Positions 22,848 to 24,592 of a stretch of 31,309 nt of DNA are shown piece by piece (position 1 is the first letter of the stretch; every line of letters starts with the position of its first letter). This DNA is from a virus (taxonomy: Duplodnaviria; Heunggongvirae; Uroviricota; Caudoviricetes), in IMG/VR virus record IMGVR_UViG_2534681697_000027, positions 1-31,309 of that record; one strand, 5' to 3'. Under the pieces are notes generated by a model, which worked only from the letters and a program-made list of their open reading frames with translations, was not told the DNA's origin and did no database searches. The position numbers and the translations under genes are program-made.

Positions 22848-22871
22848 CGACAGACCTGTGCTATCGGAAAG

Positions 22872-22902
22872 AAAAAAGGCCATCAGCAAAACTCTGATGG
22901 CC
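22872..22902 (-). terminator. Rho-independent terminator for leftward transcription
   Basis: 9-bp stem GGCCATCAG / CTGATGGCC with 7-nt loop, followed on the minus strand by a T6 run. Confidence 0.55.
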
Positions 22903-23516
22903 TGAATCACCTTTACCAATATTGTATGAAAAAACACGCACGACTAATTGACAATAATTTTCATTTCCATTAAAAAAGATCGCGTAGCATTCTTAATTCA
23001 TGAGGAACTTTACCCGCCAGCAATCTGAGTAGCGAAAGCTGTTCATCCCCAATGTTTTTGCTGGCGGGTCCTTTTTTCTACGGTCCTCCTCCCCGGAGGG
23101 GGGCATTTCATTATTTTTCTAATCGTTACTGGTGAGAAGGCGGAAGAAAAAGCCAGTTCTTCGCCCCTAAATAACAGCATGATTCCAGTCCATGCAAAAT
23201 CTGATTTCCAGCTCACACATACCGAGTACTGTACAAAAAACCGCCAGCCAAGGCAGTTAAGAGTGTGTTCCCGGGGTTTGCTTAGAATATTTTGTAAGTT
23301 GTCCGAAGAGATATTTACAACACCAGAATGATGCATTATCAGTCCCCTGCCAGAGGTTCACTACGTAACCTGACCGACAATGCACCATTCTGGTGCTGAA
23401 AAAAGAGCACTGGAACTGCAACAAAACAACATCACAGAACAGGAGATGGTAAGGAGTCAGACATTCCCACACAATATTGTGTCAGTGCAAATAACAACCT
23501 TCGTCTCAAATCTCGC

Positions 23517-23591
23517 TGGAGCGGGCAGCGGGAATCGAACCCGCATCATCAGCTTGGAAGGCTGAGGTAATAGCCATTATACGATGCCCGC
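23517..23591 (-). tRNA. tRNA-Gly, anticodon UCC
   Basis: Manual cloverleaf fold of GCGGGCATCGTATAATGGCTATTACCTCAGCCTTCCAAGCTGATGATGCGGGTTCGATTCCCGCTGCCCGCTCCA; resembles host Gly2 tRNA. Confidence 0.75.
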
Positions 23592-23594
23592 ATA

Positions 23595-23670
23595 TGGTGC
23601 CGACTACCGGAATCGAACTGGTGACCTACTGATTACAAGTCAGTTGCTCTGCCTGCTGAGCTAAGTCGGC
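23595..23670 (-). tRNA. tRNA-Thr, anticodon UGU
   Basis: Manual fold; anticodon loop CUUGUAA; one A-C mismatch in the T stem; encoded CCA. Confidence 0.65.
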
Positions 23671-23672
23671 GC

Positions 23673-23749
23673 TGGCCCACCACCGAGGACTCGAACCTCG
23701 CACCGTCAACTTAGAAGGTTGATGCTCTATCCGGATGAGCTAGTGGTGG
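23673..23749 (-). tRNA. tRNA-Arg, anticodon UCU
   Basis: Manual fold; acceptor CCACCAC/GTGGTGG; anticodon loop CUUCUAA; T loop TTCGAGT; encoded CCA. Confidence 0.65.
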
Positions 23750-23750
23750 T

Positions 23751-23827
23751 TGGTGGCCCTTGCTGGACTTGAACCAGCGACCTGGCGATTATGAGTCGCT
23801 CGCTCTGACCAACTGAGCTAAAGGGCC
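23751..23827 (-). tRNA. tRNA-Ile2-like, anticodon CAU (lysidine type; anticodon alone would score as Met)
   Basis: Manual fold of GGCCCTTTAGCTCAGTTGGTCAGAGCGAGCGACTCATAATCGCCAGGTCGCTGGTTCAAGTCCAGCAAGGGCCACCA; backbone resembles host ileX. Confidence 0.65.
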
Positions 23828-23836
23828 GGAGGCAGA

Positions 23837-23865
23837 ATAATAACCATATGTCATCACATCTGCAA
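23837..23865 (-). promoter_or_regulatory. Putative sigma70 promoter for the tRNA cluster
   Basis: TTGCAG-17 nt-TATTAT on the minus strand, -10 ending about 9 nt upstream of the first tRNA. Confidence 0.35.
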
Positions 23866-23939
23866 ACTCATCTGACCACCAGCACGTTTAACGTCCTGTG
23901 CCGTTTTTCAGGTATAAAAAAACCCGCATAAAGCGGGCT

Positions 23940-23966
23940 CTTTCAAATGTCCATGTCTGCTATTCG
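23940..23966. terminator. Hairpin plus T-run between the ORF6N-like gene and the tRNA promoter
   Basis: GCCCGC-TTTAT-GCGGGT followed by T7 on the plus strand; which strand it serves is uncertain. Confidence 0.3.
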
Positions 23967-24034
23967 CCTCGCAGTACAACTTTGCGAAGCGTACCGGAAT
24001 TGAAGCAGTTTATGGCTAAAATTGCAAGAACTTT

Positions 24035-24592
24035 TTAAAGCTGCATCAGCCTTTCCACCAGTTTATCTCTGCGAACAACAAACCAACCATTGGCTCTCGC
24101 CAGTTCCAGCCATGACTCAAGGAAAATAACAATATCATCATCCCGCAACTGAATTGTGGAAACAGTGACACCGCCTTGCTGATAACAGAGAACTCGCGTG
24201 TCGTAACTTTTCTGGCATGAAACTGGCGTTGACGGCTCCTTTTGACTGAAATAGCAGTCTTCCAGTTTTTCGAACACATCCCACGCCTGATCGGTTTCGA
24301 GCATTTTTGCGTGGCGGGATGCGCCGCGTTCTGTCCAGAGAATGAGGGAGCGGGTTTTGGGAGAGATGGGATTTTGTGAGTAGTTTAAAGCTACCCGCAA
24401 TTCTTTAAGGTCATTACCAACAACTTTGAAAAAGTGTTTCCCTTCAACGAAGCGTACTTTGTTCTCATGATGATTCTGGCGAATACGCACCGGCTCAGTG
24501 CCGTAAAGCTGCGCCAAAAGTTCGGTGGTAATAACAGGAATCTGGTTATAGGTAACAGGGGAAAGGTTTTTGACAGAAATCTGAACAGTCAT
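24035..24592 (-). CDS. ORF6N-domain (antirepressor-like) protein, 185 aa
   Basis: N-terminal pattern ITTELLAQLYGTEPVRIRQNHHENKVRFVEGKHFFKVVGNDLKEL...LILWTERGASRHAKMLETDQAWDVFEKLEDCYF recalled as ORF6N family; GAGG ribosome-binding site 6 nt upstream. Confidence 0.45.
   Translation of the reverse strand: MTVQISVKNLSPVTYNQIPVITTELLAQLYGTEPVRIRQNHHENKVRFVEGKHFFKVVGNDLKELRVALNYSQNPISPKTRSLILWTERGASRHAKMLETDQAWDVFEKLEDCYFSQKEPSTPVSCQKSYDTRVLCYQQGGVTVSTIQLRDDDIVIFLESWLELARANGWFVVRRDKLVERLMQL

Follow-up and report, generated by a model that had tools for sequence, protein, structure and literature searches.

The window analysed here is the whole 31,309-nucleotide record IMGVR_UViG_2534681697_000027, which contains a lambdoid prophage of the class Caudoviricetes with its late genes on the minus strand. 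Our subject is a gene-free gap of 673 bp (22844–23516) between a tRNA cluster and the lysis genes of this prophage, together with an ORF6N-like gene on the far side of the tRNAs. In lambdoid prophages the region from the antitermination gene Q to the lysis genes carries Shiga toxin genes (stx) and other morons, and in prophages of enterohaemorrhagic and enteropathogenic Escherichia coli (EHEC and EPEC) the same region encodes small RNAs (sRNAs) that rewire host regulation. Read in late order on the minus strand, the locus comprises DUF1367 and DUF1364 genes, a Q-like gene of the DUF1133 type (24862–25536; Pfam, and PHROG 753 'anti-termination protein Q-like' at 5.8e-80), a block of regulatory RNAs matched by Rfam (24644–24842), the ORF6N-like gene (24035–24592; Pfam, PHROG), four tRNA genes (23517–23827; ARAGORN, Rfam) and the gap. 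These are followed by a copy of ISEc20 on the plus strand (21394–22843, transposase open reading frame (ORF) 21621–22817), a P21-type holin gene (21168–21383, minus strand), and genes for lysozyme, Rz and a trkG-like transporter. The features listed in a sequence-only reading of this stretch were all recovered, at coordinates exact or within 1 nt.

That reading saw no convincing ORF in the gap, as was borne out here: its five mechanical ORFs returned no Pfam or PHROG matches, their lengths shift even among 99%-identical relatives, and more distant relatives have no counterparts. Small proteins encoded in the gap were rejected on these grounds, and a palindrome produces, as an artefact, the 'MHHSG' start that appears in both directions. 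DNA searches divide the gap cleanly into two modules, which we term A (22844–23217) and B (23232–23516): the similarity of the former to other genomes stops at 23217, that of the latter begins at 23232, and the two meet at the end of a terminator, t2, with no leftover bases. The junction between them (23217–23232) corresponds to the cargo position of relatives and is empty here. Behind t2, relatives have TerB and DUF3927 genes (L011, L012), IraM or an esterase, while a cargo-free arrangement like that of the window occurs in nine genomes behind different Q genes. Judged by these alignments, the B/A junction is the cargo slot that stx, TerB and esterase genes use in relatives.

It had been proposed that the gap is the scar left by deletion of a cargo gene, toxin or other moron, and relatives do have cargo inserted between tRNA module and holin leader, as such a scar would lead one to expect. 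We consider this highly improbable. Two intact, conserved modules abut exactly at the end of t2 with all bases accounted for, the same cargo-free arrangement recurs in several prophages with different Q genes, and DNA and profile searches of the gap yielded no gene fragment, neither truncated remnants nor unmatched DNA being present at the junction. With nothing left over between the modules, the slot is empty and not a deletion. The gap does align to intergenic DNA in relatives, which had been put forward as a sign that it is ordinary spacer, but the pattern of substitutions shows selection on RNA structure, and the gap as a whole folds with z=-3.96. A covariance-model search, recommended earlier as a way to identify an RNA, matched no family: with Rfam release 15 the window (E<=1) and its relatives gave, in the gap, only miRNA-precursor noise from a long hairpin. 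The 'empty' version of this site is thus made up of two noncoding modules that are portable and whose RNA structure is under selection. Comparative data favour the suggestion of a small RNA locus or cis-acting site: covariation supports an RNA structure in the late direction, three terminator-like signals point the same way, and an antisense terminator is accompanied by a conserved -35 element, as detailed below.

Module B is best described, from its sequence and position, as a structured 3' trailer of the tRNA operon. It begins 26 nt after tRNA-Gly and ends at t2. In 35 of 40 loci tRNA-Gly(UCC) precedes it, whereas the tRNAs before the Thr-Gly pair differ from locus to locus. Homologues behind tRNA-Gly in another set of prophages are about 70% identical. 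Among complete E. coli genomes, 398 of 5426 (about 7%) have the module, which is also found in Shigella; only 2 of 50,697 phage records contain it, so that no well-studied phage can serve as a guide. A search of viral contigs with an 18-nt hairpin pattern, in which 16 bases were specified, yielded about 100 true homologues; in genome contigs nearly all of its matches were chance matches from unrelated phyla.

The 5' domain of module B (23396–23490, minus strand) is a four-way junction in which a 7-bp closing stem (GCACUG/CAGUGC) surrounds three hairpins and is followed by a run of six to seven U residues, the putative terminator t1. This fold recurs independently in about 30 distinct homologues though the inner hairpins diverge in sequence, with arm variants such as CACA/UGUG versus CGUA/UACG, GGGAUGU/ACAUCC versus GGGGCG/CGCCC, and CUGGC/GCCAG versus CUGAC/GUCGG. 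A covariance model of the junction (R1) matched 84 places, among them the window at 53.5 bits (E=4.9e-10). In the alignment fitted to this model (A4), which by its construction leans towards the structure, 87% of cells were paired compared with 37–46% in slid controls, and 11 pairs showed double changes.

Downstream of the junction lies a long hairpin (23314–23402, minus strand). The sequence-only reading had described a 16-bp stem at 23324–23395; the hairpin is real and its stem is longer, with 24 contiguous pairs including three G.U pairs, and about 35 bp rich in G.U in the family consensus. Its predicted energy is -48 kcal/mol (z=-7.1) on the minus strand versus -31 on the plus strand. RNAalifold, applied to 37 distinct aligned sequences, found 51 pairs, and at 11 of these both partners have changed in a compensatory way; 97.7% of cells formed standard pairs as opposed to 30–50% when partners were slid by 1–3 columns, and none of 500 shuffles attained the observed pairing or covariation score. 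Helix 4 of this alignment (29 pairs, 98.7% paired) varies at 15 of its 29 pairs by exchange of G.U with A.U or G.C, and the apical helix shows double changes at four of six. Such tolerance of G.U is confined to the minus strand, because the other strand would have A.C at these places. The pairing of module B is therefore supported by covariation, and on the late strand only. As continuous double-stranded RNA exceeding the approximately 20 bp of an RNase III site, the long hairpin is also a predicted cleavage target.

The 3' part of module B (23233–23313, minus strand) is a conserved, A/C-rich and largely unpaired stretch followed by t2, found in the scan for terminator-like sites (stem 23239–23258, U-run to 23233). 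The t2 sequence, AACYGCC..GGCGGTTTTTT, is kept in every aligned lineage, and the similarity of tRNA-linked relatives ends there. Both t2 and a further terminator in module A, t3, have the G+C-rich stem-loop and U-tract of Rho-independent terminators and are conserved in relatives. Over the interval 21300–25000 the consensus scan returned nine terminator-like sites against 3.9 ± 1.8 expected.

No Rfam family matches module B in the window or in relatives, and we conclude that it is a well-supported, hitherto undescribed structured RNA that is absent from Rfam and unannotated. Its presence all the same in some 7% of the complete E. coli genomes makes it a source of concrete new candidates for prophage RNAs. 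Two kinds of known RNA invite comparison. The 3'ETS-leuZ sRNA, reportedly about 53 nt long, is said to derive from the 3' external transcribed spacer of the glyW-cysT-leuZ tRNA operon. Module B resembles it in lying between the last tRNA of an operon and an intrinsic terminator on the same strand, in combining a stem with a U-tail, and in its predicted release by tRNA processing; it differs in being about 280 nt long, highly structured, phage-borne and unrelated in sequence. The ROOL, GOLLD and T4 species 1/2 RNAs are large structured RNAs found by phage tRNA clusters. With these module B has in common that a conserved structured noncoding RNA is co-located and co-oriented with a phage tRNA cluster, whereas it is far smaller than ROOL and GOLLD, lies in enterobacterial lambdoid prophages, has another architecture and, as noted, matches no Rfam family, ROOL and GOLLD included.

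Module B might instead be a functional RNA in its own right, the first of a new family, and not a passive trailer; one possibility is a tRNA-shaped decoy or processing-enzyme substrate that is transcribed along with the phage tRNAs, for example against tRNA-targeting host defences or as an RNase sponge. Tight linkage to tRNA-Gly(UCC) with variable tRNAs upstream, a cloverleaf topology with a 7-bp closing stem and a first arm of 4–5 bp, structure kept at about 70% sequence identity and the want of an Rfam family would all fit such an RNA. The junction nevertheless carries no T-loop or D-loop signatures, its inner arms diverge strongly between lineages, and ARAGORN rejects it even at relaxed thresholds, all of which makes the stand-alone reading rather improbable in our estimation. 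A degenerate tRNA or tmRNA was also considered directly and rejected: ARAGORN runs with introns allowed and lowered thresholds did not accept the junction (thresholds of 70–80% gave only inconsistent calls), and the Rfam tRNA model had no match at 23396–23490. Somewhat less doubtful, and still unlikely, is the broader proposal that the tRNA-linked RNA belongs to an undescribed family of structured phage noncoding RNAs with a function of its own. That proposal takes in the junction with its anti-Shine-Dalgarno-like loop CUCCUUACC, the G.U-rich hairpin of about 35 bp and the seed-like stretch before t2; made in lysogens along with the phage tRNAs, such an RNA could be a tRNA-shaped decoy or sponge for host RNases, tRNA-targeting defence nucleases or host sRNAs.

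Further variation in module B was noted among relatives. The loop of the second junction hairpin (P2) holds the motif CUGACUCCUUACC (23441–23453, minus strand), conserved in window-type lineages (L006, L011, L012, L144, L154, L165 and L200; L229 has CUCUCUCCUUACC) and having CUCCUUA in common with the 16S rRNA 3' end; in lineages of the other type a long paired arm takes the place of this loop. In L009 (3060–3110) and L013 (2472–2520), read in the late sense, the final bases of the 3' arm of the long hairpin can instead pair downstream, and this pairing co-varies between lineages (CGAUG...CAUCG versus GGUG...CACC), which suggests a small alternative hairpin in competition with the lowest part of the long stem. 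This alternative hairpin is missing from the window, which has UUGUAA...UUACAA. In many relatives, among them L013 (2326–2518) and equivalently L010, L012 and L014, an extra structured insert of about 110 nt is present between the long hairpin and t2. Two copies of module B of differing lineage types lie within a few kb of each other in L010 (phage SerU-LTIIb; 3648–4212 and 5360–6118), L157 and L159, pointing to duplication or recombination between prophage late regions.

Module A (22844–23217, minus strand) is a holin-proximal leader that travels with the P21-type holin. It is 84–88% identical in about 1500 E. coli records, where it directly abuts the holin start, and in 99%-identical relatives it stands uninterrupted beside the holin. 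Its late-sense terminator t3 (22867–22903), recovered by the consensus scan at 22877–22903, consists of a 10-bp stem followed by TTTTTTCTTTC, in agreement with the terminator previously marked at 22872–22902, and has a predicted energy of -17.3 kcal/mol (z=-4.5). In the arrangement free of the insertion sequence (IS), t3 lies just upstream of the holin ribosome-binding site. Analogous terminators directly precede the holin in two unrelated leaders, those of E. coli 042 and EPEC prophage PP2 (L013 1999–1986 and L015 4132–4158). Decayed copies of module A were seen next to Rz fragments and iss in L002 (4001–4344) and at about 640 other plasmid places; such copies, found on ColV-type virulence plasmids and ST131 chromosomes, are relics of lambdoid lysis regions. 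The nmpC-essD intergenic region of the K-12 prophage DLP12 was considered as a homologue of module A and rejected for want of any similarity.

On the plus strand, module A holds a candidate antisense sRNA gene (22948–23078) with a -35 element TTGACA (22948–22953), a -10 element TAAAAA (22971–22976) at 17-bp spacing, and a predicted product of about 95 nt that is antisense to the late RNA. Its proposed end is the inverted repeat CCCGCCAGCAA/TTGCTGGCGGG. The sequence-only reading had placed an 11-bp repeat followed by T-runs at 23014–23068; the repeat is present and a T-run does follow it, with the correction that it starts at 23013 (23013–23068) and reaches 12 bp when the flanking A-T pair is counted (23012–23069). 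The T6 run behind it (23072–23077) exists on the plus strand only. On that strand the repeat folds as a Y-shaped terminator enclosing a GAAA-tetraloop hairpin (23027–23044) at -28.8 kcal/mol (z=-5.6), and the G.U pairs of the inner hairpin are A.C on the other strand. In an alignment of homologues 85–88% identical to module A (A2), conservation peaks at the inverted repeat and at the TTGACA 60 bp to its left. We therefore posit that the plus-strand candidate is likely a small antisense RNA ending at the inverted repeat. A second plus-strand hairpin with a T-rich tail (23083–23118; terminator-like site 23083–23104) is poorly conserved, and its stem is lost in L001.

The setting of this candidate recalls sRNAs of pathogenic E. 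coli. The PasA and PasC sRNAs adjoin the holin-lysozyme operon in lambdoid prophages of EPEC E2348/69 (Pearl Mizrahi 2021, PMC8550237; Zhu, Shabalina & Storz 2026, bioRxiv 10.64898/2026.05.13.724894). PasA, which we placed by means of its published partial sequence (L015 minus strand, 3925–3990), lies in EPEC PP2 between the esterase gene and the holin and opposite to the late genes. Like PasA and PasC, the candidate is positioned directly upstream of the holin-lysozyme operon and antisense to the late genes, with its inverted repeat and T6 on the plus strand 110–235 nt from the holin side; it has a predicted size of about 80–95 nt, an intrinsic terminator stem containing GCCAGCA, and a late-sense terminator between the sRNA and the holin. 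It differs in sequence, a local alignment score of 19 equalling the shuffled mean of 19 ± 2 and blastn-short giving no matches in the gap, and in the 34-nt branched loop of its terminator. Since the window is dissimilar in sequence to the published sRNAs, the candidate resembles them in position, orientation, size and terminator but does not belong to their family.

EHEC prophages likewise have convergent sRNA genes, for AgvB, AsxR and EcOnc27, at the PR' moron site (Tree et al. 2014, PMC4104026), and both PasA/PasC and AgvB/AsxR are Hfq-bound, trans-acting RNAs (PMC8550237, PMC4104026). The window resembles the EHEC loci in its niche, behind Q/PR' and ahead of the lysis genes, and in combining a sense with an antisense RNA whose terminators converge; E. 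coli 042 also has a convergent antisense terminator beside its t2. In contrast, the conserved 42-nt 3' region of AgvB, AsxR and EcOnc03 (GTATCTCATGC..GCCCGAACCCAYTCGGGC) is absent from the window, where only 10-nt chance words match, and AgvB, AsxR and EcOnc27 are smaller, at 51–60 nt. Comparison with PasA, PasC, PasD2, AgvB, AsxR, EcOnc03 and the EcOnc27 probe found no homology in the window. The STnc100/PasD family (Rfam RF02076, threshold 47 bits) had no match in window positions 21000–25000 at E<=1; genuine members score 94–124 bits at the cargo end in L001, L011 and L016, and the L013 insert reaches only 17.5 bits.

The ORF6N-like gene next to the tRNAs had been described as a 185-aa gene with its own ribosome-binding site, which agrees with our annotation (24035–24592, minus strand, GAGG 5 nt before the ATG). 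Its N-terminal domain matches Pfam ORF6N (E=5.6e-20), its full length matches PHROG 2379 'anti-repressor' (1e-90), and tblastn matched many annotated anti-repressors in Stx phages and other phages. By these matches the gene is a full-length phage anti-repressor of the AnrP/Ant type, with predicted activity. Upstream of it on the minus strand are three Rfam matches that all exceed their gathering scores (GA): isrK (24755–24829; 77.8 bits, GA 50), the c4-a1b1 target sites (24790–24842; 52.9 bits, GA 46.7) and the C4 antisense RNA (24644–24728; 68.7 bits, GA 45). The isrK match begins right behind a promoter-like TTGACT-18-TATATT (24865–24836, minus strand), which in turn comes after the Q-like gene's stop codon. 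With these RNAs upstream, the anti-repressor downstream and the Q-like gene immediately upstream, the block belongs with the IsrK-AnrP and c4-ant modules.

The immI region of P1/P7 is laid out as c4 RNA-icd-ant (Rfam RF01695/RF03163). The order of C4 RNA and anti-repressor in the window matches this P1 arrangement as well as that of Gifsy-1, where the gene order is antQ-isrK-orf45-anrP-isrJ (Hershko-Shalev et al. 2016, PMC4825925). With Gifsy-1 the window has in common, in the same order, a Q-like gene, an IsrK RNA with terminator, a short ORF or C4 RNA, and the anti-repressor (PMC4825925). It differs from Gifsy-1 in the DUF1133 type of its Q-like protein, in that no IsrJ match was found in the window, and in an uncertain equivalent of orf45, a 35-aa ORF having a weak PHROG match only. 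A near-identical relative, L004, is 98% identical on both sides and is without window positions 24037–24971, with 90 bp in their place. Absence of the anti-repressor block from otherwise near-identical relatives marks it as an accessory module of a known kind. The gene is not cargo of the stx type, as the sequence-only reading had proposed: it is a PHROG 2379 anti-repressor within a known IsrK/C4 module downstream of Q, and it lies between Q and the tRNAs, upstream of the latter and so outside the stx slot, which is between the tRNAs and S. The ORF6N gene is accounted for by a system already described, and the elements of the gap are of ordinary kinds (terminators, a tRNA trailer and a prophage sRNA candidate).

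Taken together, the most probable reading, in which we place somewhat better than even confidence, is that the gap combines a tRNA-trailer RNA with a holin leader containing terminators and an sRNA candidate, and that its neighbour is an RNA-controlled anti-repressor. We infer that the gap serves to insulate the lysis genes and to yield RNA products. Under this proposal, in a lysogen, polymerase that has not been modified by Q and that starts from a constitutive late or tRNA promoter would halt stepwise at t1, t2 and t3, so that the lysis genes would stay silent, while the tRNAs and a stable trailer RNA would still be made, as with a tRNA 3' external transcribed spacer. Q-modified polymerase would pass all three sites, and the 35-bp duplex in the read-through transcript would be a likely RNase III site at which the tRNA segment is cut away from the mRNA for lysis. 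As for the antisense RNA, it would pair with the leader in cis or act in trans, like PasA and PasC. This gives a testable picture in which serial terminators silence lysis genes while tRNAs and small RNAs are expressed.

An alternative, which we hold to be appreciably less probable, is that the gap acts solely in cis, as an insulator and leader whose hairpins are terminators and mRNA-stability elements keeping lysis dependent on Q, any released RNAs being functionless by-products and the plus-strand 'sRNA' a bidirectional or protective terminator. Such a role would account well for three late-sense terminator-like signals within 670 bp, for the terminator directly before the holin in three unrelated versions of the leader, and for the consensus scan passing no plus-strand promoter inside the gap. 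It would leave over, however, a G.U-rich duplex of about 35 bp and a four-way junction with lineage-specific compensation, which exceed the needs of termination, and the conservation, without a pairing role, of the unpaired stretch before t2 and of the loop motif CUCCUUACC. It is also at odds with PasA/PasC and AgvB/AsxR, the known RNAs of this site, which are Hfq-bound and trans-acting (PMC8550237, PMC4104026).

Several observations weigh against the combined reading of trailer RNA, leader and sRNA that we favour. Within module B, the first hairpin (P1) of the window's junction fits the covariance model poorly, the junction domain folded alone is not exceptional (z=-1.4), the closing stem is almost invariant and so uninformative for covariation, and the 'loop' of t1, made up of three hairpins, is atypical for an intrinsic terminator. 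Within module A, the candidate -10 element TAAAAA is without the conserved final T, and the consensus promoter scan called no plus-strand promoter within the gap, the candidate included. A G>A change in the inverted-repeat stem of the decayed plasmid copy in L002 gives A.C on the plus strand and G.U on the minus strand, and homologues of module A form only two sequence groups (99% and approximately 85% identical), so that covariation cannot test its structure. The IS between the gap elements and the holin, in a prophage that is probably defective, means that a role in lysis control may be moot here. Finally, transcription, termination efficiency, processing and regulatory role of the gap RNAs are predicted from sequence features.

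The IS itself accounts for the left border of the gap. Window positions 21390–22849 are 99.5–99.7% identical to annotated ISEc20 copies (megablast, complete E. coli genomes), and the transposase carries the DEDD_Tnp_IS110 and Transposase_20 Pfam domains of the IS110 family. The element lies between ATCCCGCCCC and CCGACAG, 10 bp upstream of the holin ATG and in the orientation opposite to late transcription; this insertion point was set by comparison with two uninterrupted relatives, the exact ends being ambiguous within a CCCC core. The uninterrupted site ATCCCGCCCC|CCGACAG occurs in at least twelve loci, L004 and L005 among them, and identical IS junctions were found in Shigella flexneri SFBU1023 (L043) and in viral contigs L168 and L211. 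The border at 22848 given by the sequence-only reading is thus the right end of ISEc20, which parts the gap from the holin. Elements of the IS110 family encode a guide (bridge) RNA upstream of the transposase, a position taken here by the 230-bp left end. A trkG/trkH-like potassium transporter gene (18615–20090) directly after Rz, an arrangement shared with the K-12 Rac prophage, E. coli 042 and phage vB_EcoS-683R6, marks the element as Rac-like. The trkG-linked, IS-disrupted prophage is probably defective, and for this window the results chiefly amount to improved annotation.

The tRNA cluster was also as previously described, with four genes called by ARAGORN on the minus strand and Rfam tRNA scores of 56–70 bits. 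In the late sense their order is tRNA(CAT), tRNA-Arg(TCT), tRNA-Thr(TGT) and tRNA-Gly(TCC). The CAT-anticodon tRNA (23751–23827) is called Met by ARAGORN, whereas in near-identical relatives RefSeq has it as tRNA-Ile, read after lysidine modification, like ileZ of Stx phages. Between the anti-repressor gene and the tRNAs, a stem-loop read from the sequence (CCCGC-ATAAA-GCGGG followed by T7; 23914–23945, minus strand) looks like a terminator. It was missed by the consensus terminator scan, and Rfam overlaps across 23914–23990 were non-significant (Trp_leader at E=0.1; isrK at 19.9 bits, E=0.36). In L004, DNA homologous to this stem-loop stands directly behind the Q-like gene, and the stretch 23914–23990 may be the original unit of short RNA and terminator near the late promoter, duplicated when the anti-repressor block was gained.

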